In this document: positions 18,924-36,115 of the stretch, one piece after another
Layout: each line of letters begins with the position of its first letter
How positions within the stretch are numbered: the first letter of the stretch is position 1
Assembly: GCA_011364905.1 (NCBI GenBank)
Contig: RDNZ01000026.1
Span: 1 to 38,877 of the forward strand
Reading direction: 5' to 3'
DNA: 38,877 bases
Origin: Candidatus Thorarchaeota archaeon
GTDB lineage: Archaea > Asgardarchaeota > Thorarchaeia > Thorarchaeales > Thorarchaeaceae
Notes under the pieces: generated by a model
Told to the model about the DNA's origin: nothing
Seen by the model: only the letters and a program-made list of their open reading frames with translations
The model's database searches: none
Program-made: the position numbers and the translations under genes

Positions 18924-19826
18924 CTATCCCCAATCACTAATTCTTTCAATTCCGGACTCGCCCAACTCACAGACAAGCTTGAGCTCAGCAAGGATACCAG
19001 ACCACCCAATGTCATAGCCCACTACAGCCTCAGGAGACCTGAAACCAAGGTGGTGGAGGGTCACTAAGGTGTGTTCATCGACCTCTTCAAACCGTACATT
19101 GACAATAGTTTCAGGTTCATTACCATGAACCCATGAGAACTCTAATTCCCTATCTTGAATCATTTTTTTGAAGACAACAGGTCCTCGCCCTTCAGCCCAC
19201 CAAGTATAGATGCCAGCATACTGGCGATCCACTACAGGATGATCAGCACGAATGAAATGTTTTAGCTTTTCAGGATTTGTCCATACATCAAACGGTAATG
19301 ATGGAGGTGTTTTACAGAGAACGCTTAGCCTCACATCAACCGGATCGTAGCGAGTGATGCGAAGCGGATGATAGTTCGAGTAATTGAAACGAATAGCAGG
19401 AGCACCAAGCTCGACTGCTGCTTTGAAATTGGCAAGCAAGAGGTTCCAATGCTCAGGTAAGTGATAGGCTCGAGCGGATACAGGAACAGCTCCGTGGTTT
19501 ACCTGTATCATTGTCCCTGGACCAATGGGATTGAATCTGATGACAAGCAGTGTGTCGACACCCATGATTCTCCAACTCAAGAGAAGGACTCTTCCCTCTT
19601 TCACCTCTTTAATGTCCCAGTAATTTGCGAGTTCAGGAGTCGTCGGAGCGTTAGGTCCAAGAAATCGGATAGTGCCTCCCGCTCTCACATCTGCACTGAT
19701 CTCATCACCAAGCCACTGAAGCATAATGATGGGATCCAGAAACTTCTCCCAAACCTCCTCTATCGGTCGGGAAACTCGAATCCGAAGATGAATGACAGGA
19801 AGGACCTCTTCTTTTTGCTCCGCCAC
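18924..19826 (-). CDS. Tandem SRPBCC (AHSA1/CalC-like, START-fold) domain protein
   Basis: Two repeats: RPIEEVWEKFLDP...QW.G...TMIQVNH...HWNLLLANFK and PPSLPFDVWTNPEKL...TLVTLHH...GWSGILAELK. Confidence 0.8.
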   Translation of the reverse strand: MAEQKEEVLPVIHLRIRVSRPIEEVWEKFLDPIIMLQWLGDEISADVRAGGTIRFLGPNAPTTPELANYWDIKEVKEGRVLLLSWRIMGVDTLLVIRFNPIGPGTMIQVNHGAVPVSARAYHLPEHWNLLLANFKAAVELGAPAIRFNYSNYHPLRITRYDPVDVRLSVLCKTPPSLPFDVWTNPEKLKHFIRADHPVVDRQYAGIYTWWAEGRGPVVFKKMIQDRELEFSWVHGNEPETIVNVRFEEVDEHTLVTLHHLGFRSPEAVVGYDIGWSGILAELKLVCELGESGIERISDWG

Positions 19827-19909
19827 TATCCTTGACCTCGTACAGTTCGTATTTGTTATCGCGCCTTATGTTTCTGATGGTTACCAAGAAATAAAACTCT
19901 CGTTACAAT

Positions 19910-20332
19910 TCATGATACTTTCATCAATGTTACAAGAGCCTCTCCGTCCATGACTACCTTGTCTTCCTGATTAGTGCAAGTTGTCTTCAAAGTTATTCTT
20001 TCTTTTTCATCATTCAACATGACTACTTCTACTCGAGCAGTGATTGTATCACCAATTCTCACAGGGCCCAAGAAGCGCATGCTCTGACTCATGTAGATTG
20101 TTCCGGGTCCAGGCAAATGCATACCGATTGCAGTGCTAATGAAAGCAGCTGTCAGAATTCCATGAGCGATACGTCCGCCAAACATGGTCGTCTTTGCCCA
20201 TTCTTCGTTAAAGTGCAATGGGTTGTAGTCTCCGCTGAGGTCTCCAAAGACCTGAATATCCTTCTCGGTCACCGTATGAACGACCTCGGCCGATTGACCC
20301 ATCTTGATATCTGAGTATTTTGTAACTTCCAT
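19910..20332 (-). CDS. MaoC-family (R)-specific enoyl-CoA hydratase (PhaJ-like hot-dog fold)
   Basis: Hydratase-2 motif FGDLSGDYNPLH...FGGRIAHG, LPGPGTIYMSQ; ATG at 20332 follows a GGAGAAGTGA RBS. Confidence 0.9.
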   Translation of the reverse strand: MEVTKYSDIKMGQSAEVVHTVTEKDIQVFGDLSGDYNPLHFNEEWAKTTMFGGRIAHGILTAAFISTAIGMHLPGPGTIYMSQSMRFLGPVRIGDTITARVEVVMLNDEKERITLKTTCTNQEDKVVMDGEALVTLMKVS

Positions 20333-20337
20333 TTGAT

Positions 20338-21366
20338 TCACTTCTCCTTTCCCCATTTTATGGTCATTGCATTCCAAGACCAACCAATACCAGCTGCTGT
20401 GAGAACCACAATATCCCCATCTTTAATCTTGCCGTCTTTCAAACCCTCTTCGAGGGAAACAATGGAGTCGTTCTGTCCCATATGCCCCCATTCTGTGAAG
20501 TATGTAGCCTGCTTATAGGGATCGACACCAAGTTCATTGGCGACATACTCGAACGCACTTCGCTTCATTCGAATAAGTCCGAGATAGTCTATGTCTTCCC
20601 GATTGTAGCCACTGCGCTCTAGAGATTGGTCGACAACAGCGACGAAATTCTTCATTGAGAGTTTGTCTAGGCGTTGTTTGAGACCCTCGGGGTCAGTGAC
20701 ATCCAAATATATGAGCCCTTTTTCAATTGCCTCGCAGGAAATAGGCATCACGGTCCCACCTGCGGGGACGTAAACATCTTCAGAGAACTGACCATCAGAG
20801 ATCACACTTCCCTCCAATACTACGTTCCTGTCATAGTCGGCTTTGAGGATCATCGCAACACCACTAGCAGCCAAATCATGCATGAATCGAGTTCGTATGT
20901 TTCCGTAATCGATAAGATCAGAGTTACGGTAGCCGCTTCCAATAATAACACGCTTATACCCCTGTGTCTGCATGAGCGATTTTGCCAGCATCATGGCAAC
21001 GACAATGGTGCCACATCTCTGATTCACATCAAACGCCCAAGCACTGGTCGCTCCTATATCACCTTGAAATTTGATTGCATAGGTCTGCATAGGATGTTCA
21101 GCATATACCTCGCCAGCCCAGATGACAAGGTCGATATCCTTTGCAGGATCGATCCCTGCTCTCTCAATAGCTATCTTTGCAGCCTTCACTCCCATTGCTA
21201 CAGTGTGGTCATCTTTTCCGGGAACGGCTTTACTGATCATCCCTATCTTCGTCTTGATTATATCAACGGGCGTTCCAGATTTACTCGAAATATACTCGGC
21301 TGTGTGGCGTTCTTTCGGGATATAGGTGCCAATGGCCTCAACACCGACATTGATGTCTTTCATCAT
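20338..21366 (-). CDS. FabH/KAS III-like thiolase-fold enzyme A (non-canonical active site)
   Basis: IGTYIP, AFDVNQRCG (Cys), YVPAGGT, DYLGLIRMK, WGHMGQND, KDGDIVVLTAAGIGWSW. Confidence 0.88.
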   Translation of the reverse strand: MMKDINVGVEAIGTYIPKERHTAEYISSKSGTPVDIIKTKIGMISKAVPGKDDHTVAMGVKAAKIAIERAGIDPAKDIDLVIWAGEVYAEHPMQTYAIKFQGDIGATSAWAFDVNQRCGTIVVAMMLAKSLMQTQGYKRVIIGSGYRNSDLIDYGNIRTRFMHDLAASGVAMILKADYDRNVVLEGSVISDGQFSEDVYVPAGGTVMPISCEAIEKGLIYLDVTDPEGLKQRLDKLSMKNFVAVVDQSLERSGYNREDIDYLGLIRMKRSAFEYVANELGVDPYKQATYFTEWGHMGQNDSIVSLEEGLKDGKIKDGDIVVLTAAGIGWSWNAMTIKWGKEK

Positions 21367-21379
21367 CTATCAACCTCTC

Positions 21380-22912
21380 TTAATCTACTAGTTCTCGTTT
21401 CAAAATCTTCCCAGCAGCACTCTTTGGAAGCTCCTCTCTGAATTCATAGTACTTTGGTATTTTGTAACGTGCAAGTTTTTCACCAAGATACTCAAGAATC
21501 TCCTCTTGAGTCAAGCTCTTCCCTGGTTTTAGCACAATGACAGCTTTCCCAACCTCTCCCCACTTCTCGTGGGGGACTCCCACCACTGCTGCTTCCAATA
21601 TGGATGGGTGTTTATACAGAATTTCCTCAATCTCAGTTGGATAGACATTCTCGCCGCCAGAGATGAACATGTCCTTCTTTCGGCCTGTGATGAAGTAAAA
21701 TCCCTCTTCATCTCGCATAACAAGATCACCCGTGTGAACCCAACCATCAAGCTCAATTGTTTTGGCTGTTTCTTCAGGTTCATCCCAATAGCCAGAGAAA
21801 GAGTGGGGACCACGGAGCATCAACTCCCCAACAGTTCCAGTTGGTACTTCAATGCCATGGTCATCAGCCACTTTCATATCGCAGTGGAAGACTGAGAATC
21901 CGACCGACGATGGCTTTCGTTTGACATCAATCTCGGGGAGATAGAAATTGTTTGGACCAACCTCTGTGAGACCGTAGCCCATCTTCAGTATTTTCCCTCG
22001 AGCCCAGTACTTCTCCATGATAGCAACAGGACAGGGGGCGCCTCCAGAAATGAAGACACGAACACTGTCGAAGTTAGCCTTGGCGAAGCTGGGAGATTCA
22101 GACATCATGTTGAACATTGTGGGGACACCAATGACAATCGAGCATTTCTCATCCTCAATTACACTTAGAGTTTCATTAACATCGAAATCGCCCATGATTA
22201 TGGACTTAGCCCCCAAATGAATGAAGGGAATCAAAAGCACATTTATTCCGCCGGTATGAAAGAGTGGAAAAAGCAGTGGCTGGATGTCGTCAGGCCTGAG
22301 TCCCCATGAAACAATCGTATTCACTGAGTTCCAGAAAACTAGACCATGTGAGAGCACTGCGCCCTTGGGGAGTCCTGTGGTGCCACCGGTAAAGACGATG
22401 AGATAGGGATCGTCTAATGTGATAGAGGGTCGCTCTACGCCGCTTGACGACTTCTTCTTCATTAAGGAGTCGAGATCTGAGTTTCCGTCAGTCGATTTCT
22501 CACCCAAGACAACGACTGGCTTTTTGTCAAGCGAGGAACGAAATCCGTCAAACTGACTCTTGAGGGCAGGGTCATAAAAGAACGTGGTGGGACTAGTTTT
22601 GTCAATCAGGTATTCAAGTTCGGGCACAGTAAGTCTGACATTGAATGGCGTAAGGATGGCCCCAATTTTTCCACATGCAAAGAGAACATCCAAAAAGTCG
22701 AACCTGTTCTTGGAGTAGATTCCCACACGGTCCCCCTTTTCTACACCGAAATCAAGCAATACTCTCGCTACTTGATTTGCACGAGAATCCAAATCCTCGA
22801 ATGTGTACTTCTTCTTCTGAATATTATCAATCATTGCTTCCCTTTTTGGGGTTAGTAATGCTCGTCTTGCGGTCCAATCGCCAATCCAAGACCAATCTTT
22901 CTGGGCCATCAC
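21380..22912 (-). CDS. Acyl-CoA synthetase / AMP-binding ligase A (FadD/MenE-like)
   Basis: FTGGTTGLPKG, PLFHTGG, GYGLTE, WVHTGD, GRKKDMFISGGENVYP, PKSAAGKI. Confidence 0.93.
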   Translation of the reverse strand: MMAQKDWSWIGDWTARRALLTPKREAMIDNIQKKKYTFEDLDSRANQVARVLLDFGVEKGDRVGIYSKNRFDFLDVLFACGKIGAILTPFNVRLTVPELEYLIDKTSPTTFFYDPALKSQFDGFRSSLDKKPVVVLGEKSTDGNSDLDSLMKKKSSSGVERPSITLDDPYLIVFTGGTTGLPKGAVLSHGLVFWNSVNTIVSWGLRPDDIQPLLFPLFHTGGINVLLIPFIHLGAKSIIMGDFDVNETLSVIEDEKCSIVIGVPTMFNMMSESPSFAKANFDSVRVFISGGAPCPVAIMEKYWARGKILKMGYGLTEVGPNNFYLPEIDVKRKPSSVGFSVFHCDMKVADDHGIEVPTGTVGELMLRGPHSFSGYWDEPEETAKTIELDGWVHTGDLVMRDEEGFYFITGRKKDMFISGGENVYPTEIEEILYKHPSILEAAVVGVPHEKWGEVGKAVIVLKPGKSLTQEEILEYLGEKLARYKIPKYYEFREELPKSAAGKILKRELVD

Positions 22913-22921
22913 ACTATCTCC

Positions 22922-22971
22922 TTACATCATTGCAAGAAGACTTAGTCTAGTATTAGTCTTCCTGAATGTAA
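22922..22971 (-). promoter_or_regulatory. Long inverted repeat abutting the RBS of ligase A
   Basis: Minus strand: TTACATT-CAGGAAGACT-(12 nt)-AGTCTTCTTG-CAATG-ATGTAA, then GGAGA RBS. Confidence 0.35.
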
Positions 22972-23002
22972 ATCACGCCATTCTCTCAAGATGTGAGTCT
23001 AG

Positions 23003-23030
23003 CTCCATGGAGTTCCAAAAGATATATTAT
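23003..23030 (+). promoter_or_regulatory. Palindrome plus BRE/TATA-like element in the divergent promoter region
   Basis: Perfect palindrome CTCCATGGAG (23003-23012), then CAAAAGATATATTAT. The same AGATATAT core lies upstream of the binding-protein gene (31972-31979). Confidence 0.35.
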
Positions 23031-23098
23031 TCGCCTGAGCGGTCCTCACTGGGGAAATCCAGTTTTAGGAACAAGATGAGAAGGAAGTTGAACTGACC

Positions 23099-23887
23099 TT
23101 GGCAGATGATATTATTCTAAGTACAGAGGAGTTGACCAAATCGTTTGGTGGACTCGTTGCTGTTAACGATGTTAACATCGATGTCGAAAGAGGGGCAATC
23201 AAAGCTATCATCGGTCCCAATGGTTCAGGAAAGACAACTTTCTTCAACTTGATTACTGGCGTCTTCCAGCCTTCGTATGGAAAGATTTTCTTTGAAGGGA
23301 TGGACATAACACGAACTTCATTGCATCAGCGGGCCCGATTGGGCATTTCACGGTCATATCAGATCACGAATATTTTTCCCTTTCAGACGACTTTTGAGAA
23401 TATTCGATTGGCTGTGCAGGGCTGCAGTGGCTCCAGAGTGAATTTCATGGGGATGCTGAAAAAAGCCAGCTCATACGAAACGTTTCATGAAAGGGTTCTC
23501 GATATAGCCTCTGTTGTGGGTTTGGATCCTATGAGGCTCTACGTTCCAGCTGCTCTTATACCACATGCAGAACAAAGGAAGCTTGAAATCGCTATGGCTC
23601 TAGCCACCGAACCGCGACTTCTTTTGCTTGATGAGCCCGCCGCAGGGATGGCCATTGAGGAAATCCCAGAGGTGATTGATGCCATTTTGCGTGTCAAAGA
23701 ATCGTACGGTGACCAACTAACGCTCTTAATAGTCGAACACAAAATGGACATTGTGATGAATCTTAGCGAAGAGATTCTTGTCCTATCAGAAGGAAGGCTC
23801 ATAGCAAAAGGGCCGCCGGATGAAATTCGCGAAAATGAACAAGTATTGACAGCATATCTAGGTGGTACAGATGAAGAACTTGCTTGA
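23099..23887 (+). CDS. livG: Liv/HAAT-family ABC importer ATP-binding subunit
   Basis: FGGLVAVNDV, GPNGSGKTT, RARLGISRSYQ, LEIAMALA, LLLLDEPAAG, VEHKM, AYLG. Confidence 0.92.
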   Translation: MADDIILSTEELTKSFGGLVAVNDVNIDVERGAIKAIIGPNGSGKTTFFNLITGVFQPSYGKIFFEGMDITRTSLHQRARLGISRSYQITNIFPFQTTFENIRLAVQGCSGSRVNFMGMLKKASSYETFHERVLDIASVVGLDPMRLYVPAALIPHAEQRKLEIAMALATEPRLLLLDEPAAGMAIEEIPEVIDAILRVKESYGDQLTLLIVEHKMDIVMNLSEEILVLSEGRLIAKGPPDEIRENEQVLTAYLGGTDEELA

Positions 23888-24590
23888 AATACAGGATGCT
23901 CACGTATATATCGGTTCCTTCTACATCCTGCAAGGAATATCACTAGTCGTACCAAAGGGAGAGGTCACACTTTTACTAGGCAGAAACGGAGCTGGTAAGA
24001 CTACTACCATGAAAACAATACTAGGCATATATCCGCCTAAAGAGGGAAAGATCATTTTCAGGGAAGAGGAAATAACAAATCTTCCAACTCATAAAATCGT
24101 CAATAAGGGAATCGGATATGTACCTGATACTAGAAGGATATTTGGAACACTGACTGTCGAACAAAATCTTATCGTGTCCAGAAGAAAAGCAACTTCTCAT
24201 TCTGAAATGCAAGAGCGGTTGGAGCTCATATTTGATCTGTTCCCGGATATACGGGGATTTTTGAAACAGAAAGCAGGAACCTTGTCGGGAGGACAACAAC
24301 AGATGTTGGCTGTCGCCCGTGCTTTAGTGAATAACAATGACCTATTACTGATAGATGAGCCCACAGAGGGATTGAGTCCTTTATTGGCAAAGAATCTAAT
24401 CGCCTCTTTAAGCCGATTGAAAGAATTTGCTACTATCCTTTTGGTGGAACAGAACTTCCGTGCTGTTTCAAAACTGGGAGATAATTACTATATCATCGAT
24501 AGTGGAAAGATTGCCCATGAGGGAAACAACATGAGTGAATTAATAGAAGACAAGGTCCTCTTGGCAAAATACTTGGGGGTCAGCATATAA
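23871..24590 (+). CDS. livF: Liv/HAAT-family ABC importer ATP-binding subunit
   Basis: GRNGAGKTT, GIGYVP..RRIF..LTV.QNL, AGTLSGGQQQMLAVARAL, DEPTEGL.P, LLVEQN, YLGV. Confidence 0.92.
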   Translation: MKNLLEIQDAHVYIGSFYILQGISLVVPKGEVTLLLGRNGAGKTTTMKTILGIYPPKEGKIIFREEEITNLPTHKIVNKGIGYVPDTRRIFGTLTVEQNLIVSRRKATSHSEMQERLELIFDLFPDIRGFLKQKAGTLSGGQQQMLAVARALVNNNDLLLIDEPTEGLSPLLAKNLIASLSRLKEFATILLVEQNFRAVSKLGDNYYIIDSGKIAHEGNNMSELIEDKVLLAKYLGVSI

Positions 24591-25699: not shown

Positions 25700-27608
25700 A
25701 AGCAATATCAAGGGGAGATTCAGAGGTTCTAATCGTACGATAAGTTCATTTCTGTCAAACAATAGAACAATAATAGCTGCTGTTGCGTTTTTGTATTTAC
25801 TCCCATTGGGGACAGCTGCAGCTACATCTCCCACTCGAACTCTACTTTCCTTGATGACTCAGATAATGATTTTTGGTCTTCTTGCAATGTCTTTTGATCT
25901 ACAACTAGGACGCTCAGCACTTCTCAACTTTGGACAGGTTGCACTTTTTGGTGTTGGAGCTTATACTATGGCATTCACTTTGAATTCTGACATTTTGCCG
26001 CCTCCCTTCAATCTTATTGCTGCGATTCCGTTTCCTCTTACGATAATTGTGGCAATGATGATTGGAGGTTTTCTTGGGCTTATAATGGGATTGACAACTA
26101 GTCGACTAAGAGGCACAGCCTTTGCATTTATTGCCTTGGCGATTGCAGAGTTCATTTACAATTTCTTCAATGAGAATCCTGCTATTTCTGGGGGAGAAAC
26201 AGGACTCCCTGTACCAATTCCTGGAATCATTAGAACTGGTCCTTTCTACCTGTTCTTTGTTGTAATTGCATTTGCTTTTCTTGCAGCCTTTATTGGAATG
26301 GTCATCCTATACTTGAAGAAACGAACAGAGAGAATAGGATTAATCCTTGTCACTCCAGTCATGGTAGTCCTTACGACTGTTCTATTTGTCTTTGGAACAA
26401 ACATCTTGGGGCCCTTAGTAGTAATCGTAGCTTTTCTTCTGCTGATTCTACTCTATTGGTTTGAACGAAGTGAATCCATCAGTGATCCCCTGCAATATTC
26501 TAAAACCCGAACAAATGGAAGTGAAGAGGAACGAGCAGATATTTTGACTGACTATATGCTACCATTCGCCATCGTAGTGTTGTTTCTATTAGGTGTGGGT
26601 CTTGCATTCGGAAGTAACATTGCCGGATTGTGGGCGTTATGGGCTGAGGGTGGTTCCATCTTTATACTTAAAATTCCAGTGCAATACTATTTGGTATTGA
26701 CATGTATCACAATAATCTACTATTTCACTAGGCGGCTATTATCTTCACCCTTCGGAAGAATGATAACTGCGGTTGCTCAGAATGAAGGACGCGCTGAAGC
26801 TCTGGGGTACAATAGCTATCATGCCAAAATAGTTGTGCTTTTTATAAGTGGTGCAATTGCGTCCCTTGCAGGGGGATTGTATGCACAGTACTTTGGAACC
26901 ATTGATCCAAACTCAGTGTTGGGAGTTGATTTGACTATAAACGCAATGCTGTATACTATCATCGGAGGACTCGGAACACTATTCGGACCAATACTTGGGG
27001 CAGGAGTCGTGGAGTACTCTACATTAAACCTAAACATAATCTTTCAAAGTATTGGTCTAAATCCAGGATTGTGGTTGCTTGGTTTAGGAGTCGTCTATGT
27101 GTTCATTGTCCTCTTCATGCCACATGGCATAGTAGGAACAATCGGAAAAAGGTCGGTCTCTATCAAGGACAAACTTCGTCGATTCAAATTAGGCAACCTT
27201 GAGTTTGGATTGAAGGATGCTGATTATTGGATTTTGGGGCTTCTAGGTACTATGGGATTTTTCCTTTTGTTGACAGAAGATGCTGGGTTCACCCTCATTA
27301 TTACTGGGATTTTTGCATTTCTTGATGCATTCGTTCTGTTCGTAGTTTATTATTTCGTATTGTCAACAAAAGATAGCAGAATCCTTCTTAGCATCACTGG
27401 GATTTTTGGAGTTCTCACTGTATTCGGTCTGCTCCAAATGTACAATTCGATATTGTTGTTAGGAGGAATCTGGATCCCTCTTCTTATCATTACTGTAATT
27501 TCTGGAGTTCTTACTGCATATAATCTGGTCCTAATCAATCGTTTCAGAAAGGAGATTAGGTCGTATTTAGCAGGCGGCATTAGAAGAATCTTCAGAAGGG
27601 GGAGGTGA
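25689..27608 (+). CDS. livM: Liv/HAAT-family ABC importer permease, enlarged (639 aa)
   Basis: IFGLLAMSFDL.LG....LNFGQ.A.FG.GAY, SGGETG, SPFGR...A..QNE.RAEALGY, IIGGLGTLFGP.LGA, FMP.GIVG; extra internal and C-terminal TM segments. Confidence 0.88.
   Translation: MDNESNIKGRFRGSNRTISSFLSNNRTIIAAVAFLYLLPLGTAAATSPTRTLLSLMTQIMIFGLLAMSFDLQLGRSALLNFGQVALFGVGAYTMAFTLNSDILPPPFNLIAAIPFPLTIIVAMMIGGFLGLIMGLTTSRLRGTAFAFIALAIAEFIYNFFNENPAISGGETGLPVPIPGIIRTGPFYLFFVVIAFAFLAAFIGMVILYLKKRTERIGLILVTPVMVVLTTVLFVFGTNILGPLVVIVAFLLLILLYWFERSESISDPLQYSKTRTNGSEEERADILTDYMLPFAIVVLFLLGVGLAFGSNIAGLWALWAEGGSIFILKIPVQYYLVLTCITIIYYFTRRLLSSPFGRMITAVAQNEGRAEALGYNSYHAKIVVLFISGAIASLAGGLYAQYFGTIDPNSVLGVDLTINAMLYTIIGGLGTLFGPILGAGVVEYSTLNLNIIFQSIGLNPGLWLLGLGVVYVFIVLFMPHGIVGTIGKRSVSIKDKLRRFKLGNLEFGLKDADYWILGLLGTMGFFLLLTEDAGFTLIITGIFAFLDAFVLFVVYYFVLSTKDSRILLSITGIFGVLTVFGLLQMYNSILLLGGIWIPLLIITVISGVLTAYNLVLINRFRKEIRSYLAGGIRRIFRRGR
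27294..27516 (+). repeat. Three imperfect repeats (93/96-nt period), each encoding a TM helix, in the livM tail
   Basis: Units start at 27294, 27387 and 27483 and encode LIITGIFAFL / LSITGIFGVL / LIITVISGVL, with matching DNA (e.g. ACTGGGATTTTTG, TGGAGTTCT.ACTG). Confidence 0.65.
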
Positions 27609-28444
27609 TTAGTATGCCATATGCGAAAATGGAAGACATCGAGATTTATTATGAGACCTACGGACGACCTAGTGCACCGCCCCTTGTGCTAATTGGGGGA
27701 TGGGCAAGCTATCGCTGGGTCTGGTTTCGACAAGTCCCGACATTCAAGGAGAAATATCGAGTTGTTGTCTTTGACAATCGAGGAGCAGGAAAGAGCTCCA
27801 AGCCAGATTATCCATACACAATAAAAATGATGGCTGCTGATACAATTGGTCTGATGGATACGTTGGAGATTGGTGATGCACACATTTTGGGAATTTCAAT
27901 GGGAGGACTGATAGCTCAGCAGATTGCTATATCCTATCCTGAAAGGGTTCGAAGTCTAATCCTTTCATCAACACACTTTGGTGGATCCAACCAAATACTA
28001 ATGGACGATAGAACAATGGCTTTGCTAATCGCATTACCAACGGAAACAATTTCGAAGGAGCAAGCCAGGGAGATGCGGTATCGAGCCACCTTCAGTCCGC
28101 AGTTCATTGAGAAAAACAGACCTATACTAAATCAGATAGATGAATGGGCGGAGAAGCTTCCCACGCCACTATACGCACAAGTGCATCAAAGCTCAGCAAC
28201 GGGTGAGTTTGATTCCGAAGCAGAGCTGAATAAAATAACTGCACCTACACTTATCCTCCATGGAGCCAATGACCGTGCCGTACCAACGAAGAATGGAGAG
28301 CTACTCGCTGAGCGAATTCCCAATGCAAGATTGAAGATCATAAAAGATGCCGCGCATTTTGTAATAATCGAAAAGTATGAAGAATTCAACAATGAGGTAA
28401 TGAACTTCATAGACAACGATGTAGAGGGACCACAGATTTCTTAG
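27605..28444 (+). CDS. Alpha/beta hydrolase A (enol-lactonase/esterase-like)
   Basis: FDNRGAGKS, nucleophile elbow GISMGG, Asp (GANDRAVP), His (AAHF). Likely ATG at 27614 after GGAGGTGA. Confidence 0.9.
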   Translation: MISMPYAKMEDIEIYYETYGRPSAPPLVLIGGWASYRWVWFRQVPTFKEKYRVVVFDNRGAGKSSKPDYPYTIKMMAADTIGLMDTLEIGDAHILGISMGGLIAQQIAISYPERVRSLILSSTHFGGSNQILMDDRTMALLIALPTETISKEQAREMRYRATFSPQFIEKNRPILNQIDEWAEKLPTPLYAQVHQSSATGEFDSEAELNKITAPTLILHGANDRAVPTKNGELLAERIPNARLKIIKDAAHFVIIEKYEEFNNEVMNFIDNDVEGPQIS

Positions 28445-28503
28445 TCAGATTGAAATGTAATTTGGCGAATAGAAGAAAGTCTCGCTCATGAGAAACTCAG
28501 AGG

Positions 28504-29523
28504 ATGTGGCAGATGGTTCGTTCAGCAAAAGTCACAGGTCTTGGAATTTACATTCCTGAAAAGATGTTGACAAACGAAGATATTGAGCGGATGCTCAACC
28601 GACCTGGCACTGCAGATTGGTTAGTTGCGAATGTAGGCGTCAAGGAACGCCACATCATGGCAGAAGACGAGGTGACATCAGATCTTGCCTTTCATGCAAG
28701 TACACAAGCACTGGAAAACGCAGACCTCAAAGCAGAAGACCTTGACCTTATTATTTTGAGCACGGATACGCCAGACTATCTTTCCCCAGCAACTTCCGTT
28801 GTAGTGCAGTATAAACTCGGAGCGAAGAACGCTGGTACATTTGATGTTAATTGTGCGTGTGCAGGCTTGGTCACTTCCTTGGATATAGCCTCACGATATA
28901 TTAGGACTGATTCAACGATTAATAATGTCTTAGTCATTGGTGCCTATGGTATGACTAAATTTGTGGATTGGACTGACCACTACACTTGCACACTGTTTGC
29001 GGATGCAGCAGGAGCTATGGTTCTGCAGACAAGTGATGAACAAGAGGGATTCATTGCATCGAAACTAATTGCTGATGGCTCGTTTCATGACCACTTGGGT
29101 GTGTATGTAGGAGGCACCGCTGAACCACCAACCATTGAAGCAATTCAGAATAACAGGCATCATCTGGCGTTTCGCAAACGCTTTCCAGCGGATACGAATC
29201 TTCAGCACTGGCCAGTTCTAACCAGGGAGTGCGTGGCAAAGGCAAATCTGACCATGAAGGACATAGATTGGATCTTCTTCACTCAGGTGAATCTACGTAC
29301 AATTGAAGCAGTGATGAAAGAACTGAATATGCCTATTGAGAAGACGCACAATGTAATGGACAAATGGGGATACACCGGATCAGCCTGCATTGCGTTGGCA
29401 ATGTATGACGCTGTGGACCAAGGCAAGCTTCCACCACCTGGCGAGGGGAGCGGCGAGAATATTGCACTGTGCTCATCGGGGGGAGGATACAATATGGCCG
29501 CTGCCGTTTTAAAATGGTGGTAG
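28504..29523 (+). CDS. FabH/KAS III-like thiolase-fold enzyme B (non-canonical active site)
   Basis: TGLGIYIPE..LTN, G..ERHI, STDTPDYLSPATS, FDVNCACAG (Cys), LFADAAGA, FFTQVN, WGYTGSA, SGGG. ATG at 28513 is an alternative start. Confidence 0.9.
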   Translation: MWQMVRSAKVTGLGIYIPEKMLTNEDIERMLNRPGTADWLVANVGVKERHIMAEDEVTSDLAFHASTQALENADLKAEDLDLIILSTDTPDYLSPATSVVVQYKLGAKNAGTFDVNCACAGLVTSLDIASRYIRTDSTINNVLVIGAYGMTKFVDWTDHYTCTLFADAAGAMVLQTSDEQEGFIASKLIADGSFHDHLGVYVGGTAEPPTIEAIQNNRHHLAFRKRFPADTNLQHWPVLTRECVAKANLTMKDIDWIFFTQVNLRTIEAVMKELNMPIEKTHNVMDKWGYTGSACIALAMYDAVDQGKLPPPGEGSGENIALCSSGGGYNMAAAVLKWW

Positions 29524-29577
29524 GGGATTTTTATCTTAGTTTTGCCTGATATAGCCTAAGGAGAAACAATAGAATTC

Positions 29578-31146
29578 TTGTCGAGGCGACATCAGATGGT
29601 CAATCAGTTTGATTATTTATCTAAGAGAAACGTTTACTCACCGGAAGCGGAGGCTCTAGTAGATGTGGAAACTGGGAAAAGGTATACTTATGGAGAGTTC
29701 AACAAACGAGCCAATAAAGTAGCGAATTTTCTTCAGCAGAAAGTTGGATTGGAGAAGGGGGATCGTTTGTGTGTTCTCGCTCAGAACAGCTTGGAGTTTT
29801 GGGAAGTATTTTTTGGGTGCCAGAAATGCGGAGGGATCTTTAGTCCTCTTAACTGGCGATTAGTAGCCCGAGAATTGGCTGGTTTAGTGAATGATTTAAC
29901 TCCGTCAGTACTATTCTATGATGCAGACTTAGCCAAAGTGGCATCTGATCTCAAGAAAGAAGGTGCTGTTGACCATTGGGTCTCCTTGAGTTCGGGAGGA
30001 ACAGAAATTGATGGCTCCTTTGTTTATGAGGAGGAGATGAAGAGCGTAGAATCTAGCTCACCGAAAGCAGTGAGTCTGGCTTACGAAGATCCGATGGGCA
30101 TTGTATTCACCGGAGGAACAACCGGTCTACCGAAAGGTGCAATGATTACCTATCGCCAAGTGGCATTCAACACACTTACCACCATCAGGGACATACTCCC
30201 TGGCGATGTGTACATCAATCATCTTCCCCTTTTTCATGTGGGCGGACTGTATGTTTATGCCATTCCACTTTTCATACTCGGAGGAAAAGTGATCCAAATG
30301 AAAAGATGGGATCTTGACACTTTGATACAAGTCATCAATAAAGAGAATCCAAACTTTTTCTTTGCCGTGCCTACACAATACAGAATGCTAATGAATCATC
30401 CAGATTTTGAGTCTATCAACTTCAGTAATGTTCGATTCCTAACATCGGGCGGCGAACCTTTGCCATTGGACATCATCAAGACATTCCGAGAAAAACATGG
30501 TGTCAAATTCAAACAAGGATTTGGCATGACCGAAGTTGGACCAGGGTGCTTTGCTCTTGATCCATGGGATGCTGAACGGAAAGTTGGTAGCATTGGCACT
30601 CCAAACTTCTTCATAGACGCAAAAGCGGTTGATCCAGAAACCGGAAAGGACTGCAAGGCAAATGAAGTTGGCGAACTTCTATTCAAAGGACCAACTGTGA
30701 CCATAGGTTACTGGAACCGACCAGAGATGAACAAGACGCTCTTGGATGATGAGGGTTGGTTTAGAACAGGAGATATGGTATACTTTGATGATGAGGGCTA
30801 TTACTATGTAGTTGACCGGGTGAAAGACATGTTCATCTCTGGCGGCGAGAATGTCTATCCAAGAGAGATTGAGAAGGTTCTGGAACAGCATCCAAAGATT
30901 GCAGAAGTACAAGTGATTGGTGTGCCCGATCCAAAATGGGGTGAGGTGGGACGCGCAGTCGTTGTGCTGAAACAGGGACAAGAAGCATCGGAGGAGGAAA
31001 TACTCAACTTCTGCACTGATAAGCTAGCAAAATTCAAGATTCCCAAGTCAGTGGTCTACGTTGATAGTTTTACTCCTTATATTTCAGGAGCAGGAAAGAT
31101 TCTGAAACGCAAACTAAGGGAAGACTTTGGAAAGGAGGAAAAATGA
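29578..31146 (+). CDS. Acyl-CoA synthetase / AMP-binding ligase B (paralog of ligase A)
   Basis: FTGGTTGLPKG, PLFHVGG, GFGMTE, WFRTGD, DRVKDMFISGGENVYP, GAGKI. Probable ATG at 29596. Confidence 0.93.
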   Translation: MSRRHQMVNQFDYLSKRNVYSPEAEALVDVETGKRYTYGEFNKRANKVANFLQQKVGLEKGDRLCVLAQNSLEFWEVFFGCQKCGGIFSPLNWRLVARELAGLVNDLTPSVLFYDADLAKVASDLKKEGAVDHWVSLSSGGTEIDGSFVYEEEMKSVESSSPKAVSLAYEDPMGIVFTGGTTGLPKGAMITYRQVAFNTLTTIRDILPGDVYINHLPLFHVGGLYVYAIPLFILGGKVIQMKRWDLDTLIQVINKENPNFFFAVPTQYRMLMNHPDFESINFSNVRFLTSGGEPLPLDIIKTFREKHGVKFKQGFGMTEVGPGCFALDPWDAERKVGSIGTPNFFIDAKAVDPETGKDCKANEVGELLFKGPTVTIGYWNRPEMNKTLLDDEGWFRTGDMVYFDDEGYYYVVDRVKDMFISGGENVYPREIEKVLEQHPKIAEVQVIGVPDPKWGEVGRAVVVLKQGQEASEEEILNFCTDKLAKFKIPKSVVYVDSFTPYISGAGKILKRKLREDFGKEEK

Positions 31147-31943
31147 CGATGCCACTTGTCAAAGTGAATGGAGTGAATCTCTATTATGAGGTCCATGGAG
31201 AAGGCGAACCGGTGATCTTTGGAAACGGAATTTTTTCAAACACATTAGGATGGGTCAACCAACTCCCAGTTTTCTCCAAGTACTATCAGGTGGTTCTGTA
31301 TGATATGCGCGGGCAAGGGCAGAGCGACAAACCAGATGGACCCTATTCTTTCGAAATGCATGCTGATGATCAGAAGGCACTACTCGATGAACTTGGCATA
31401 GACAAAGTGCATCATGTCGGAATAAGCTATGGCGGCGAACTAGGTCTTGTCTTTGCTCTGAAGTATCCTGATATGTTGAGAAGCCTTGTTGCCTGCAGTT
31501 CTGTGTCCTTTGTTGGCCCGTTGCTCTATAACATGTGTCAACTGTGGAGGTCAGCCTGTGTGCTTGAAGATCCAGAAGTTTTCTACTATGCCACAGTTCC
31601 GCTGAATTTTGGTGAGACCTTCATTCGAGACAGCACAGCTATTCTAGAGCAAGCCAAGAAACGCTACGTTGGGCTAGATTATCCAGCGCTCGTAAGGTTA
31701 CTTGATGCCTTTTTGATGATAAACATAACAGACCAATTATCAAAAATCGAAGCGCCCACTTGCATTATTGCAGGTGAAAAAGATATCCTGAAACCAGCTG
31801 ACCCATATTCGAGAGTGATTCACAATAATATACCAAACTCGGAGATGGTCATAGTTCGTGATTCCGGACATGCTATTACATTTGATAGACCTGATGAGTT
31901 CAACAGCATAGTTCTGGGATTCCTACGAAAGAAACAGCAGTGA
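31143..31943 (+). CDS. Alpha/beta hydrolase B (enol-lactonase/esterase-like)
   Basis: YDMRGQGQS, GISYGG, GEKDIL, SGHA. Confidence 0.9.
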   Translation: MTMPLVKVNGVNLYYEVHGEGEPVIFGNGIFSNTLGWVNQLPVFSKYYQVVLYDMRGQGQSDKPDGPYSFEMHADDQKALLDELGIDKVHHVGISYGGELGLVFALKYPDMLRSLVACSSVSFVGPLLYNMCQLWRSACVLEDPEVFYYATVPLNFGETFIRDSTAILEQAKKRYVGLDYPALVRLLDAFLMINITDQLSKIEAPTCIIAGEKDILKPADPYSRVIHNNIPNSEMVIVRDSGHAITFDRPDEFNSIVLGFLRKKQQ

Positions 31944-32068
31944 AAAGCAGCTCAGTTTAGGTTTCCTTAAGAGATATATAGCAGGATGCCTCCTTTTTAG
32001 GGTTAGACATAGAACAGTCTATGTTCTTACTTTAACAGGACACGGAATCTGTTATTGGAGGAGAGCAA

Positions 32069-33571
32069 ATGAAAAAAATGAAAATTATTTCTCTATCCAT
32101 TTCATTGCTAATGCTATTCTCCCTCTTCGCACCTGTTTTCATGGTTAAACAGGTTGATGCTCAAACCACTCCAATCAAGATTGGAATTTTTGCTCCTTTC
32201 ACCGGAGGTGGTCTGCAGCTATACGCACCTTGGACAAAACAGGGATTCGAGTTGGGAATGATATATGCAACGACAATGATGGGATATGATAATGAGAATA
32301 TGACCCAAGCCGGTCGACCCTATGAGCTTCACTACTATGACACCCAGAGTTCAACAACCGTTGCCTCAAACTTAGCTACACAAGCTTTCGAAACGGATGG
32401 TATCGACATTCTTGTCGGAGGAACTTCTAGTGCAGTTGCCTCAGTACTGTCAGCAAAAGCTGAAGAATATCAGAAACTGTATTTCATATCTCCAGCTGCT
32501 TCTTCGTCACTGACTGCTGAAGAATTCAATCCATATGTTTTCAGGATTGCTAGAAACAACTGGCAGGATGCTTATGCAGGCGTTAATTACGCAATGGACA
32601 CGCTTGGCTACACCAAGTTTGCGTTTCTTGCCGCTGATTATTCCTTTGGAAGATTCGGTGTAGACGCTATGACGCAAGCAATACAGGACAAGGGAGGAAC
32701 AGTGGTCACTGCACTGTATGCGTCTCTTGCTGAAACTGATTTCCAGCCAACGATTGATGCGCTCATAGCTGCCGATGGTGTAAACGATATTGAGTATTTG
32801 TTTGTAGTATGGGCGGGTAACTTCGTCTATCTATACAATGATTTATTCACATACAACCTTGCATCGTACATGGAGCTTGCTGGGGCGTGCATTGATATCT
32901 TTTCAATGAATGCCATTGAAGCAGGTCTAACACCTCCGGCTACCTACATCGGTTCCACTGGACTCTGTCTATATGGCTATGAGCTGCCAAACAATACAGT
33001 CAATGATTGGATGGTGGCTGAACATGTCGCCAGACACATCAAGCCAAATGGACAATATGGACTCCAATATGAAGTTCCGGAGCTATTTACTGCAAGCGGG
33101 TTTGCCACAGCCCAGTTTCTGGTGGATGCGACGAATGAAGTCGCCGATCTTAACACTAACGCGATGATCAACTATCTTGAAAGTGGAATCACAATAGACT
33201 GTCCGAAGGGACCCACATACTTGAGACCTGATGATCATCAGGGGCTTGCAGAGATGTATATCGCAACAGCTGCGAATGATACTGATCCGGCATCTGAGAC
33301 ATACAATCTCATTATTGCTAAACTGAATCAAACTTTGGATCGTAACACAGTTGCACCTCCAATTGAGTCTGTCTGGAATGGTGAGCCATATGTTCCAGGT
33401 GGATTCGCACCACCGCCAACGACGACAACCTCACCTACAACTACAAGCACAGGTACGGGTACTGGGACCCAACCCACCGGAGGTTTCGATATGCTCACGG
33501 TCGGTGTGATTGCGATTGTTACACTGTTTGTGGGCTTTATCATAGCAGCAGTGATTTTCCGGAAAAAGTAG
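32069..33571 (+). CDS. livK: Liv-type ABC substrate-binding protein with Thr-rich linker and C-terminal TM anchor
   Basis: Signal peptide, IKIG...P.TG, DILVGGTSS.VA, FNPYVFR, ADYSFG, TDFQP, PKG....R..DHQ; PPPTTTTSPTTTSTGTGTGT linker followed by a TM helix and RKK. Confidence 0.88.
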   Translation: MKKMKIISLSISLLMLFSLFAPVFMVKQVDAQTTPIKIGIFAPFTGGGLQLYAPWTKQGFELGMIYATTMMGYDNENMTQAGRPYELHYYDTQSSTTVASNLATQAFETDGIDILVGGTSSAVASVLSAKAEEYQKLYFISPAASSSLTAEEFNPYVFRIARNNWQDAYAGVNYAMDTLGYTKFAFLAADYSFGRFGVDAMTQAIQDKGGTVVTALYASLAETDFQPTIDALIAADGVNDIEYLFVVWAGNFVYLYNDLFTYNLASYMELAGACIDIFSMNAIEAGLTPPATYIGSTGLCLYGYELPNNTVNDWMVAEHVARHIKPNGQYGLQYEVPELFTASGFATAQFLVDATNEVADLNTNAMINYLESGITIDCPKGPTYLRPDDHQGLAEMYIATAANDTDPASETYNLIIAKLNQTLDRNTVAPPIESVWNGEPYVPGGFAPPPTTTTSPTTTSTGTGTGTQPTGGFDMLTVGVIAIVTLFVGFIIAAVIFRKK

Positions 33572-33579
33572 AACTCTAG

Positions 33580-33614
33580 AGTAAGGGGCTAACCCTTACT
33601 TTCTTCTTTTTTTT
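33580..33614 (+). terminator. Hairpin plus poly-T terminator closing the liv/acyl-CoA operon
   Basis: AGTAAGGG-gctaa-CCCTTACT followed by TTCTTCTTTTTTTT. Confidence 0.7.
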
Positions 33615-35995: not shown

Positions 35996-36115
35996 GCTGA
36001 TGACAAGAGGACTGTATAATGACAAGTATAATATCTGAAAGATTGCATTTCAGAACACAATAGCAATTAGTCATTGTGTCTAGTGGAAAGATACTGTAAC
36101 CGAGGTAGAGAGGAA

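Follow-up and report, generated by a model that had tools for sequence, protein, structure and literature searches.

A two-arm gene cluster of a Thorarchaeota archaeon with a probable role in the uptake of an organic acid or its ester and its processing as CoA thioesters

Uptake of an organic acid or its ester, followed by processing in the form of CoA thioesters, is the most likely role of the cluster described here, from a Candidatus Thorarchaeota archaeon (contig RDNZ01000026.1, a window of 38,877 nucleotides). In our preferred reading, to which we give a probability of about one half, two joined modules bring in an esterified or (R)-3-hydroxy acid and break it down in a CoA-dependent manner: module B comprises a Liv-type importer, two Ser esterases, a ligase and the condensing-enzyme homologue KAS-B, and module A a second ligase, KAS-A and a MaoC-type hydratase. 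KAS-A and KAS-B constitute two uncharacterised FabH-like families, and a literature search returned no paper giving the cluster a function.

The gene order was verified gene for gene from open reading frames and Pfam/NCBIfam matches (Table 1), and the two divergent arms, their order and the 186-bp spacing described in an earlier note on this DNA match exactly. Overlaps of 11 nt (livH/livM) and 4 nt (livM/hydrolase A and ligase B/hydrolase B) link genes of the right arm; the annotated KAS-A and MaoC genes also overlap, and the true MaoC start is probably Met10 (20356) or Met18 (20332). The divergent region presumably holds putative promoters for both arms, with a TATA-like AT-rich stretch legible at about 23019-23034.

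Table 1. Features of the cluster and its left-hand neighbour, with positions in the window
Feature	Position	Strand	Basis or remark
Multi-pass membrane protein, 250 aa, motif GDAAGEVIGRPFG	18162..18914	+	beyond the cluster as first described
Double AHSA1/SRPBCC protein, 300 aa	18924..19826	-	PF08327, 1.6e-25, two stretches
MaoC-type (R)-specific enoyl-CoA hydratase/dehydratase	19910..20383	-	PF01575, 1.7e-26
KAS III-like A (KAS-A), PRK06840 family	20338..21366	-	NF005308, 409.8 bits vs cut-off 315
Acyl-CoA ligase A, 510 aa	21380..22912	-	AMP-binding, 4e-80, plus C-terminal domain
Divergent intergenic region, 186 bp	22913..23098	.	between ligase A and livG
livG-like ABC ATPase	23099-23887	+	PF00005 and PF12399 (livG/livF)
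livF-like ABC ATPase	23862-24590	+	PF00005 and PF12399 (livG/livF); overlaps livG
livH-like permease, 369 aa	24590-25699	+	PF02653
livM-like permease, 639 aa, enlarged	25689-27608	+	PF02653
Alpha/beta hydrolase A, Ser esterase/lactonase type	27605..28444	+	PF00561, 3e-35
KAS III-like B (KAS-B)	28504..29523	+	alignment to Aquifex FabH 2ebd
Acyl-CoA ligase B, 522 aa	29578..31146	+	AMP-binding
Alpha/beta hydrolase B, Ser esterase type	31143..31943	+	PF00561, 5e-27
Liv-type substrate-binding protein, Peripla_BP_6	32069..33571	+	PF13458, 3e-42
Terminator-like hairpin then T-run	33581..33614	+	direct sequence reading

The "twin" genes of the earlier note are indeed present as pairs, but at identities of only 22% (KAS-A/KAS-B), 41% (ligases) and 32% (hydrolases) they are ancient paralogues rather than duplicates. 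In line with the earlier claim, none of the window's open reading frames of at least 110 aa contains a domain of an ACP, FabD, ketoreductase, acyl-CoA dehydrogenase or thiolase, and a search of the entire assembly (80.8% complete) in all six frames found no PP-binding domain. The suggestion of a CoA-based system that works without ACP and is tied to an importer is upheld. Elsewhere the genome encodes six acyl-CoA dehydrogenases, four to five thiolases and three 3-hydroxyacyl-CoA dehydrogenases.

Both KAS proteins retain the general architecture of FabH and its CoA-using relatives PqsD, BioZ and NphT7, namely a common fold on a dimeric thiolase-superfamily scaffold and the acyl-accepting Cys (KAS-B aligns with Aquifex FabH 2ebd at 1e-54, and the KAS-A model matches FabH structures at TM 0.80-0.82), but the His-Asn pair with which FabH decarboxylates malonyl groups is absent from both alignments. 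In KAS-B it is replaced by Thr260 and Tyr290, in a site completed by Asp88, Cys119, Asn232 and Cys295; these six residues are invariant or almost so in the family, are kept in 18 of 18 orthologues from the fetched loci, and are found in 0-1% of the 109 FabH representatives of canonical type that were compared. KAS-A has Ile-Arg or His plus His instead, its site here consisting of Glu86, Cys118, Arg266 (His in other lineages) and His295, and a census of 76 sequences found Glu86, Glu90, Cys118 and His295 invariant. Relative to FabH, the new invariant residues are thus Asp88, Asn232 and Cys295 in KAS-B and Glu86 and Glu90 in KAS-A, and the genomic setting is one of import and catabolism instead of FAS II.

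To judge from these sites, neither family can perform FabH chemistry. Because the His/Asn pair is lost and an acid stands at the position of the HMG-CoA synthase Glu (in alignments with the HMG-CoA synthase of this genome, Asp88 of KAS-B falls on that Glu and Glu86 of KAS-A within one position of it), we infer, from residue changes alone, a non-decarboxylative reaction. The resemblance to HMG-CoA synthase (Glu-Cys-His) includes the retained Cys and an LHMK motif of the KAS-A family that corresponds to FHMP in the synthase, and a thiolase/DUF35 pair, known from the archaeal HMG-CoA synthase/thiolase/DUF35 complex, is also present in some bacterial KAS-B clusters. However, HMG-CoA synthase models cover the N-terminal half only and score far under cut-off (65.8 vs 244 bits), and a fold search ranked FabH first, with no HMG-CoA synthase among the 50 matches listed.

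Its sequence shows the binding protein to be extracellular and surface-anchored, with a signal peptide, a Thr/Pro linker and, at the C terminus, a membrane anchor. Its closest PDB matches are Rhodopseudomonas palustris 3nnd/3n0x (2e-41), and it reaches no LivJ/K or UrtA equivalog in NCBIfam, so that orthology to either was rejected. Liv-type binding proteins of R. palustris seldom take branched-chain amino acids; their ligands are aromatic, fatty and dicarboxylic acids, and their genes adjoin those of CoA ligases (PMC3223731). The R. palustris systems CouP/CouB (coumarate) and RPA3723-3725, beside pimFABCDE, come from the same source as that closest solved relative and combine a COG0683 binding protein and Liv-type uptake with an acyl-CoA ligase and a hydratase, as here, but they have neither KAS III-like enzymes nor paired esterases, and the archaeal C-terminal anchor is likewise a difference.

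All catalytic motifs of the enzymes around the importer are intact. The catalytic sets of hydrolase A (GISMGG, Asp and His) and hydrolase B (GISYGG, Asp and His) are intact; Est1 (6eb3/8v16) is the closest PDB match of the former (1e-44), which is under cut-off for all NCBIfam equivalogs, and matches the latter at 5e-35. Against the PHA-depolymerase, PcaD and BioH models the hydrolases score far under the cut-offs. Core motifs A3-A10 are complete in both ligases, including the A10 Lys (within SGAGK in ligase B). The closest PDB matches of ligase A are the feruloyl/fatty-acyl-CoA synthetase 8wev/8weu and FadD13, feruloyl-CoA synthetase being the nearest solved relative of both ligases (1e-103 and 5e-97), and the two look like ordinary CoA ligases. 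The MaoC protein has an intact catalytic D..H motif (DYNPLH).

Beside the left arm, the double SRPBCC protein is likely to bind a hydrophobic ligand, and the adjacent membrane protein, which has no Pfam match, is a weak but consistent candidate for a distant CdsA/CarS/phytol-kinase-like protein. The ESM Atlas clusters closest to it bear the names phosphatidate cytidylyltransferase or phytol kinase; the top four Foldseek matches of its model (pLDDT 85) are to TmCdsA 4q2e/4q2g (prob 0.98-0.99, E 0.013), and VIA places 4q2e first (Z 7.5), with CarS 5guf at Z 6.0. In at least 12 loci the gene stays next to AHSA1. An MtrH-type methyltransferase gene at 17129-18034 is retained only among very close relatives.

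The arrangement goes far beyond what chance would produce: the gene set is found again in dozens of genomes. Co-occurrence of the genes, which the earlier note had proposed to check by a synteny search, is thus confirmed. Ligase A adjoins KAS-A in 67 of 69 loci, MaoC does so in half of the informative ones (33/66) and is absent from Loki-type loci, and the SRPBCC gene follows MaoC in 14 Thor-type loci. Module A (ligase A and KAS-A, with or without MaoC) is present across Asgard lineages. Where the two modules adjoin, three gene orders are seen: a divergent one in Thor and Heimdall LC_3, and two distinct single co-directional operons in Hodarchaeota. Within the genus, at least seven species have KAS-A and KAS-B on one contig with about 8 kb between them, and about nine, roughly a third of the congeners searched, lack both; the cluster is accessory.

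Module B extends to Thermofilum, Caldisericia, Chloroflexota, Bacteroidota and Myxococcota-like genomes, and the KAS-B/ligase pair recurs in Anaerolineales, Thermofilum, Chondrinema and the Myxococcota-like genomes. KAS-B, a ligase or CoA-transferase and one or more alpha/beta hydrolases are found next to varied uptake systems: a Liv ABC importer in Thermofilum, Caldisericia, Anaerolineales and one Chloroflexota plasmid, a Na+/solute symporter with a TonB receptor in Chondrinema, and a signal-peptide beta-barrel-like protein with TetR in large Myxococcota-like genomes. In bacteria the set is enlarged by a FabG-type reductase, a CoA-transferase of the butyryl-CoA:acetate type and a thiolase/DUF35 pair, often with TetR; these additions are a toolkit for breakdown to acetyl-CoA.

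Several steps can be envisioned for uptake and breakdown. The importer and its anchored binding protein would take up an organic acid or small ester, the esterases of module B would cleave the ester, and ligase B would convert the freed acid to its CoA thioester, while module A, with the SRPBCC and CdsA/CarS-like proteins nearby, would handle a second acid. MaoC would interconvert (R)-3-hydroxyacyl-CoA and enoyl-CoA, the latter passing to beta-oxidation enzymes encoded elsewhere. The most plausible guess, in our view, places the substrate among (R)-3-hydroxy or 3-acyloxy alkanoates (PHA oligomers, for example, or hydroxy-acid esters derived from lipids); hydrolysis of these gives two acids, which would account for the presence of two ligases. 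The KAS proteins might form or, more likely, split a C-C bond beside a 3-oxo/3-hydroxy group in a non-decarboxylative, thiolase- or retro-aldol-like manner, or they might transfer acyl groups between ester and CoA. Some observations run contrary to parts of this scheme: the FabG-type reductase, CoA-transferase and thiolase of bacterial versions are absent from the Asgard cluster; an (R)-specific MaoC and a condensing-enzyme fold also suit ACP-free synthesis (10.1101/2024.07.05.601840); the character of the neighbouring SRPBCC and CdsA/CarS-like proteins hints at the handling of lipids instead of small-acid fermentation; the nearest solved relatives of the ligases, feruloyl-CoA synthetase and FadD13, do not suggest short hydroxy acids; and the hydrolases stay far under the PHA-depolymerase, PcaD and BioH cut-offs.

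The earlier note had favoured the joining of two acyl partners into a lipid, signal or storage oligomer, with import and dismantling as its alternative. Head-to-head biosynthesis, in which the ligases activate two acids, the KAS III-like enzymes condense or esterify them in the Ole/Lst or Pqs manner and the hydrolases act as decarboxylase or thioesterase-type finishing enzymes, is unlikely, though the foremost of the rivals. The families are those of the OleABCD olefin and LstABCD/NltABCD beta-lactone pathways (with an SDR in bacterial versions), the KAS III-like genes are paired like LstA/LstB, and the lost decarboxylation residues are compatible with the non-decarboxylative Claisen condensation for which those pathways use this fold. 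The likeness to OleABC and PqsABCD proposed earlier stands at the family level and goes no further: OleA retains Cys-His-Asn and a Glu from its partner subunit, and its similarity to KAS-B (5e-13 over residues 24-145) and KAS-A (about 3e-5) is weak and partial; OleC forms beta-lactones, unlike the plain CoA ligases seen here; and an obligate KAS-A/KAS-B heterodimer is unlikely because the two occur independently in most genomes. Ole clusters also have no importer, whereas this module always comes with uptake genes, with esterases and with either a CoA ligase or a CoA-transferase, and is not tied to export, and its TetR, thiolase and CoA-transferase partners typify catabolism. Dismantling, which also suits the esterases, the FabG-type partners, the fermenter hosts and the accessory status, is the better fit, and biosynthetic joining the less likely.

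Two further proposals concern the chain itself. Shortening of the side chains of plant hydroxycinnamates or methyl-branched isoprenoid acids, also unlikely, would run from esterase to ligase to MaoC hydration of a 2-enoyl-CoA and then to an HMG-CoA-synthase-like KAS that cleaves the product in a retro-aldol or thiolytic reaction, yielding acetyl-CoA and an aldehyde, ketone or shorter acyl-CoA. It draws on the feruloyl-CoA synthetase relationship, the acid at the HMG-CoA synthase Glu position in both KAS proteins, coumarate uptake in R. palustris by a Liv-type system beside a ligase and hydratase/lyase (PMC3223731), the phytol-kinase/CdsA-like neighbour with the SRPBCC protein, and the MtrH-type gene. 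That last neighbour is limited to very close relatives, however, the binding protein is only distantly related to solved aromatic-acid binders (1e-5 to 1e-6), and plant phenolics are an unlikely common substrate for hot-spring Thermofilum, Caldisericia and predatory Myxococcota-like bacteria. Least probable of the three is ACP-independent fatty-acid elongation or synthesis, in which KAS-A, with or without KAS-B, would condense acyl-CoA with acetyl-CoA on imported acids as primers, MaoC would serve as (R)-3-hydroxyacyl-CoA dehydratase, reductases would come from elsewhere, and the SRPBCC and CdsA/CarS-like proteins would hand products to membrane lipids. The precedent is the Sulfolobus fatty-acid synthase, which works without ACP and combines a MaoC dehydratase with a condensing enzyme that depends on CoA (10.1101/2024.07.05.601840); the overlapping, persistently adjacent KAS-A and MaoC genes, the conserved neighbours related to lipid handling and the FabG-type reductases that accompany bacterial KAS-B agree with it. 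The S. acidocaldarius system (thiolase/DUF35, SDR, MaoC-HCD and enoyl reductase) is likewise CoA-based, with an (R)-specific MaoC beside a thiolase-superfamily enzyme, yet that enzyme is a true thiolase with DUF35, and the system has its own reductases and no importer, ligases or esterases, the reverse of the cluster here. Moreover, a de novo route needs neither ligase nor importer, condensation without decarboxylation is thermodynamically uphill, and the cluster is accessory, with no reductase in its Asgard form and no MaoC in Loki-type loci.

The bacterial derivation suggested earlier is supported for the right arm at least, which looks bacterially derived: in the KAS-B tree the Asgard sequences form one clade, sister to Anaerolineales, and Thermofilum gained module B separately. 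Of the similar clusters named in the earlier note, those of Chloroflexi are real, and those of Bacillus and Thermus were not confirmed, no match in the B. subtilis and T. thermophilus controls exceeding the cut-off. Module B, whose carriers include small-genome fermenters and whose uptake partner varies to suit the cell envelope, is in our preferred reading a horizontally mobile catabolic cassette.

Each gene that the earlier note had read from the window, which belongs to a 3.08-Mb Thorarchaeota (Asgard) assembly of 80.8% completeness, was recovered at the same coordinates by ORF listing and by Pfam and NCBIfam scans, and the gap between the two divergent arms is indeed 186 bp. The plus-strand genes mostly overlap by 1–26 nt or are spaced by less than 60 nt, the exception being the binding-protein gene, which is preceded by a gap of 125 nt. 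The ligases, KAS III-like enzymes (KAS-A and KAS-B) and hydrolases had been described as twins, and each type is present twice, but the members of each pair are old paralogues from different subfamilies rather than duplicates (pairwise identity is 22% for KAS-A and KAS-B, 41% for the ligases and 32% for the hydrolases). The GC profile contains no compositional island that would signal horizontal transfer. No ORF of at least 110 aa in the window encodes an ACP, a FabD, a reductase, an acyl-CoA dehydrogenase or a thiolase domain, in agreement with the note, and a six-frame search of the assembly gave no match to the PP-binding domain (PF00550), an absence left unproven by 80.8% completeness. An ACP-free assembly agrees with the report that ACP is missing from nearly all archaea (10.1101/2024.07.05.601840). 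Genes for beta-oxidation lie elsewhere in the genome: six acyl-CoA dehydrogenases, four to five thiolases and three 3-hydroxyacyl-CoA dehydrogenases.

Features of the cluster and its flanks in the window
Feature	Coordinates	Strand	Basis or remark
Large DUF3160 protein	11382-13643	-	1.7e-197
271-aa ORF without family	16131-16946		beside the MtrH-family gene
MtrH-family methyltransferase	17129-18034	+	3.5e-66; just upstream of the cluster
250-aa multi-pass membrane protein	18162-18914	+	no Pfam match; outside the coordinates of the earlier note
Protein with two AHSA1/SRPBCC domains	18924-19826	-	ORF, Pfam/NCBIfam
MaoC	19910-20383	-	ORF, Pfam/NCBIfam
KAS-A	20338-21366	-	PF08545 and PF08541
Ligase A	21380-22912	-	ORF, Pfam/NCBIfam
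livG, livF, livH, enlarged livM	23099-27608	+	ORF, Pfam/NCBIfam
Hydrolase A, KAS-B, ligase B, hydrolase B, Peripla_BP_6 binding protein, in this order after livM		+	ORF, Pfam/NCBIfam
Hairpin and T-run closing the plus-strand arm	33581-33614		
745-aa protein with DUF3047 segment	33715-35952	+	
Response regulator with GAF and PAS domains	36074-37441		
Histidine-kinase ATPase fragment	38192-38845		

The two KAS III-like enzymes keep the fold of FabH and have rebuilt its active site in different ways. KAS-B has both ACP_syn_III domains (PF08545 and PF08541) and the KAS III fold, and aligns end to end with Aquifex FabH (1e-54); the HQAN motif of FabH has become TQVN, and GNTS has become GYTGS. A search of 1.8 billion representatives places KAS-B in a discrete clade: Cys/Thr/Tyr is common to its 18 clusters at 50% identity, against Cys/His/Asn in every one of the 109 canonical neighbours. 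The residues that define the clade (Asp88, Asn232, Thr260, Tyr290, Gly292, Cys295 and Ser325) each occur in 0–8% of the canonical set, and Cys295, a second invariant cysteine that might correspond to the acid/base Cys of two-Cys thiolases, is Ser or Thr in canonical FabH. Asp88, Cys119, Thr260, Gln261, Tyr290 and Thr291 are kept in 18 of 18 orthologues from the fetched loci.

KAS-A also contains PF08545 and PF08541, and its model has the FabH fold, with only FabH-type structures among the matches listed by a fold search (TM 0.80–0.82). It belongs to NF005308 (PRK06840, an uncharacterised "3-oxoacyl-ACP synthase") by its score of 409.8 bits (cut-off 315), a family that excludes KAS-B at 189 bits. 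At the FabH His and Asn sites, KAS-A reads LIRMK (LHMK in other lineages) and GHMGQND. Across 76 Asgard sequences Glu86, Glu90, Cys118, Met267, Lys268, His295, Gln298, Asn299 and Asp300 are invariant, and position 266 is Arg in 41, including the window, and His in 35. Bacterial relatives read LHFK or LHMK. In one bacterial phylum, the PRK06840 relatives are only 34–39% identical to KAS-A and lack a ligase neighbour; they lie instead among SDRs, a cytochrome and a luciferase-like oxygenase, an uninformative setting. In one bacterial locus, L084 (G147:C223:1-3272), a KAS-A-like gene (39%, LHFK) lies beside a KAS-B-like gene (43%, GYTGSAC) on the opposite strand, the sole adjacency of the two families seen outside Asgard.

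What, then, might these enzymes catalyse? The catalytic His and Asn of FabH, both present in 109 of 109 canonical representatives, are absent from KAS-A and KAS-B, and the acyl-accepting cysteine is invariant in both (Cys118 in 76 KAS-A sequences, Cys119 in 18 KAS-B orthologues). In an alignment with the HMG-CoA synthase of this genome, Asp88 of KAS-B coincides exactly with the catalytic Glu (S-E-S) and Glu86 of KAS-A lies within one position of it; an acid occupies that column in 2 of the 109 canonical FabHs. The FHMP motif of HMG-CoA synthase is likewise matched by the LHMK of the KAS-A family. The models for HMG-CoA synthase, however, score 65–70 bits against cut-offs of 244–353. OleA chains in the PDB match KAS-B at 5e-13 over residues 24–145 only and KAS-A at about 3e-5, and identity with OleA was rejected, the His and Asn being absent here. 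Synthesis of a biotin precursor by a BioZ/BioH-like pair is unlikely: BioZ depends on decarboxylation residues that are missing from KAS-B, and both hydrolases fall far under the BioH cut-off. An obligate KAS-A/KAS-B heterodimer of the PqsBC kind is also unlikely, as each family often occurs without the other: most Loki/Hermod-type loci have KAS-A alone, KAS-B stands alone in Thermofilum, Caldisericia and most bacterial genomes, and 3 of 12 KAS-A genomes in one bacterial phylum have both. The cluster falls outside FabH proper, OleA and the Sulfolobus ACP-free synthase, and probably outside HMG-CoA synthase and thiolase. To judge from their active-site residues, KAS-A and KAS-B are probably acylated on cysteine and would be unable to use malonyl decarboxylation, and the most economical reading is an acid/base-assisted, non-decarboxylative reaction, which could be thiolase-like, an aldol or retro-aldol step at a C–C bond, or an acyl transfer.

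Within Asgard, the scan for KAS-A loci used alignment-derived patterns that were too specific, and hence returned almost exclusively Asgard genomes: 76 loci from species-representative genomes, all but one Asgard, at 57–90% identity, spread over Thor-, Loki/Prometheo-, Hod-, Hermod- and Heimdallarchaeota. A tblastn census found ligase A adjoining KAS-A in 67 of 69 informative loci and MaoC in 33 of 66; a different, convergent alpha/beta hydrolase takes the place of MaoC in 28 of 66 (the Loki/Hermod type), and Liv genes with KAS-B lie within 8 kb of KAS-A in 12 of 47. Where module A (ligase A, KAS-A and, in some loci, MaoC) and module B (importer, hydrolases, ligase B and KAS-B) are joined, they are joined in three arrangements: as divergent arms in the window's genus and in Heimdall LC_3, as livK-ligA-KASA-MaoC-livGFHM-hydA-KASB-ligB in one Hodarchaeote, and as livHM-hydA-KASB-ligB-hydB-ligA-KASA-MaoC in another. 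At least seven species of the window's genus carry KAS-A and KAS-B on a single contig, separated by about 8 kb; about six more genomes have the two on separate or short contigs, about nine lack both, and this patchy presence marks the cluster as an accessory island. In a complete Thorarchaeota genome (L004, CP070761, 14687-16087), a 466-aa gene with weak Condensation/PapA_C matches lies between module A and module B genes, and its product may be a wax-ester-synthase or acyltransferase-like enzyme. A MAG titled Deltaproteobacteria (locus L067, genome G041) has a KAS-A 60% identical to the Asgard proteins beside a divergent ligase (43%), a pairing that could stem from gene transfer between Asgard and bacteria or from an error in binning.

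Module B extends well beyond Asgard, with a variable set of partners. In Thermofilum adornatum a ligase and two hydrolases are encoded with livGFHM, KAS-B and the binding protein, just downstream of a thiolase and a FabG-like SDR; Caldisericia combine two hydrolases, KAS-B, a FabG-type SDR, the binding protein, livGFHM, TetR, a CoA-transferase and a thiolase; Anaerolineales have KAS-B, ligase, hydrolase, SDR, ligase, hydrolase, binding protein and Liv; and a Chloroflexota plasmid carries a reductase, KAS-B, a CoA-transferase, a thiolase with DUF35, a hydrolase and a Liv system. In Chondrinema litorale (Bacteroidota), the genes are fabG, KAS-B, a Na+/solute symporter, a ligase, a hydrolase, a hypothetical gene and a TonB-dependent receptor. 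KAS-B is also present at 50–54% identity in about 39 of 201 sampled genomes from the phylum of the Deltaproteobacteria-titled MAG; all but one of these genomes measure 8.4–12.7 Mb, and the large ones are inferred to be Myxococcota. One unpublished genome is counted in this tally, and none of the conclusions depends on it. Their operon comprises TetR, KAS-B, a ligase, a 552-aa signal-peptide protein (beta-barrel-like, ending in an aromatic residue, with no Pfam match) and an alpha/beta hydrolase. The SDR partner of KAS-B is of the FabG type, above FabG cut-offs in two cases, and FabG-type SDRs act on 3-oxoacyl thioesters. Across these genomes the enzyme core is constant and the uptake system changes with the type of envelope, which is the strongest sign that the module handles a compound from outside the cell. 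A maximum-likelihood tree of KAS-B, the one family for which transfer was tested by tree, unites the Asgard sequences in one clade (100/99) sister to Anaerolineales (97/92) and places Thermofilum apart, with Bipolaricaulota; these separate positions imply at least two transfers into archaea, and the tree, whose root is not fixed, fits the bacterial source that the note had thought probable.

The remaining enzymes look functional. Both ligases have the core motifs of adenylate-forming enzymes, including the catalytic Lys, and feruloyl-CoA synthetase and FadD13 are the solved enzymes closest to them. The hydrolases both have GxSxGG, Asp and His, and are akin to alpha/beta hydrolases of the esterase/lactonase type (Est1 6eb3/8v16, Est816 5egn and PcaD). 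They share the fold and Ser-Asp-His triad of PHA depolymerases, reach no curated NCBIfam cut-off, and fall outside the PHA depolymerase and 3HB-oligomer hydrolase families (TIGR02240, 98 against 250.6 bits; NF050089, 81.8 against 300 bits). MaoC retains its Asp/His pair. The binding protein has a signal peptide and a Thr/Pro-rich linker, and a transmembrane segment anchors its C-terminus, so that it sits at the surface of the archaeal cell. No equivalog for LivJ/K or UrtA is matched, the urea-binding models being far below threshold (61.7 against 494.8 bits), and the best PDB relatives of the binding protein are 3nnd and 3n0x from R. palustris (2e-41), whose entry titles name no ligand. The livM-like permease (25689-27608, plus strand) has 639 aa, far above the usual length, the surplus being made up of transmembrane segments added at the N-terminus and a charged insertion around residues 260–285; its Heimdall and Hod orthologues have about 510 aa.

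In R. palustris, binding proteins of the Liv type rarely bind branched-chain amino acids; their ligands are aromatic, C7–C14 fatty and dicarboxylic acids, and their genes lie beside CouB or PimA (PMC3223731). By this precedent, a Liv-type binding protein beside a CoA ligase would be an organic-acid importer, and the cluster would work like the Cou and Pim uptake and CoA-ligase clusters; with the Ole and Lst pathways it shares protein families. Once a compound is imported, both esterases would hydrolyse the ester, the ligases would activate the freed acid or acids, and the (R)-3-hydroxyacyl-CoA would enter beta-oxidation, in Asgard through MaoC and in bacteria through a FabG-type reductase followed by thiolysis. 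The substrate class favoured here is that of (R)-3-hydroxy or 3-acyloxy alkanoates (PHA oligomers or esters of lipid-derived hydroxy acids), because these would account for the (R)-specific enzymes, the esterases and the two ligases. Against this choice, the hydrolases score well under the PHA-depolymerase cut-offs, and the ligases are closest, among solved structures, to feruloyl-CoA synthetase and FadD13. Full-text literature on Asgard FabH, archaeal KAS III, 3-hydroxybutyrate oligomers, phytol ketone, Thorarchaeota beta-oxidation and the structures 3N0X, 3NND and 6EB3 yielded no paper assigning a function to the cluster. Overall, the cluster is real but not a new kind of system: an operon for uptake and CoA processing that includes two uncharacterised enzymes of the thiolase superfamily.

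A link to lipids arises from the 250-aa membrane protein, whose gene is always paired with that of the SRPBCC protein and adjoins it in at least 12 loci. It has a motif of the GDxxGExxGRxFG type, and its ESM Atlas neighbours point to the CdsA/CarS/phytol-kinase superfamily. The best four Foldseek matches are TmCdsA, with a probability of 0.98–0.99 but an E value of 0.013 and a TM of 0.35, and a further structural comparison (VIA) gave Z 7.5 for 4q2e and 6.0 for CarS 5guf, a range common for helical bundles. Sequence and model thus point weakly but consistently to that superfamily of lipid enzymes, and together with the SRPBCC protein this neighbour keeps a lipid-related role for module A open. 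In the Loki-labelled locus L003, two copies of the membrane-protein gene flank the SRPBCC gene. A far bolder proposal, which we regard as quite improbable, is that KAS-A and KAS-B each represent a new class of reaction in the thiolase superfamily (Cys with Asp/Glu, catalysing non-decarboxylative C–C cleavage or formation, or ester-to-CoA acyl transfer), and that Asgard module A would, with the SRPBCC protein and the CdsA/CarS-like enzyme, feed fatty or hydroxy acids taken up by the cell into its membrane lipids. If true, the closest archaeal relatives of eukaryotes would have a way to acyl-containing lipids that needs no ACP. Further out, corrinoid-dependent methyl transfer is possible for the MtrH-family gene, whose synteny with the cluster is confined to very close relatives (L009 and L010).

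The label "ketoacyl-ACP synthase III" is given throughout to two large and widespread families that in fact have rebuilt active sites, one of which travels with an uptake system across at least six bacterial and archaeal phyla. An experimental test is feasible because there are cultured carriers of module B (Chondrinema litorale, Thermofilum adornatum and Myxococcota-like genomes of 9–12 Mb). Working out the KAS reaction would put thousands of annotations right and pin down a probably common way to scavenge an acid or ester from the environment. It also bears on the "lipid divide", namely whether ACP-free condensing-enzyme folds in Asgard archaea serve catabolism alone or lipid-related chemistry too.
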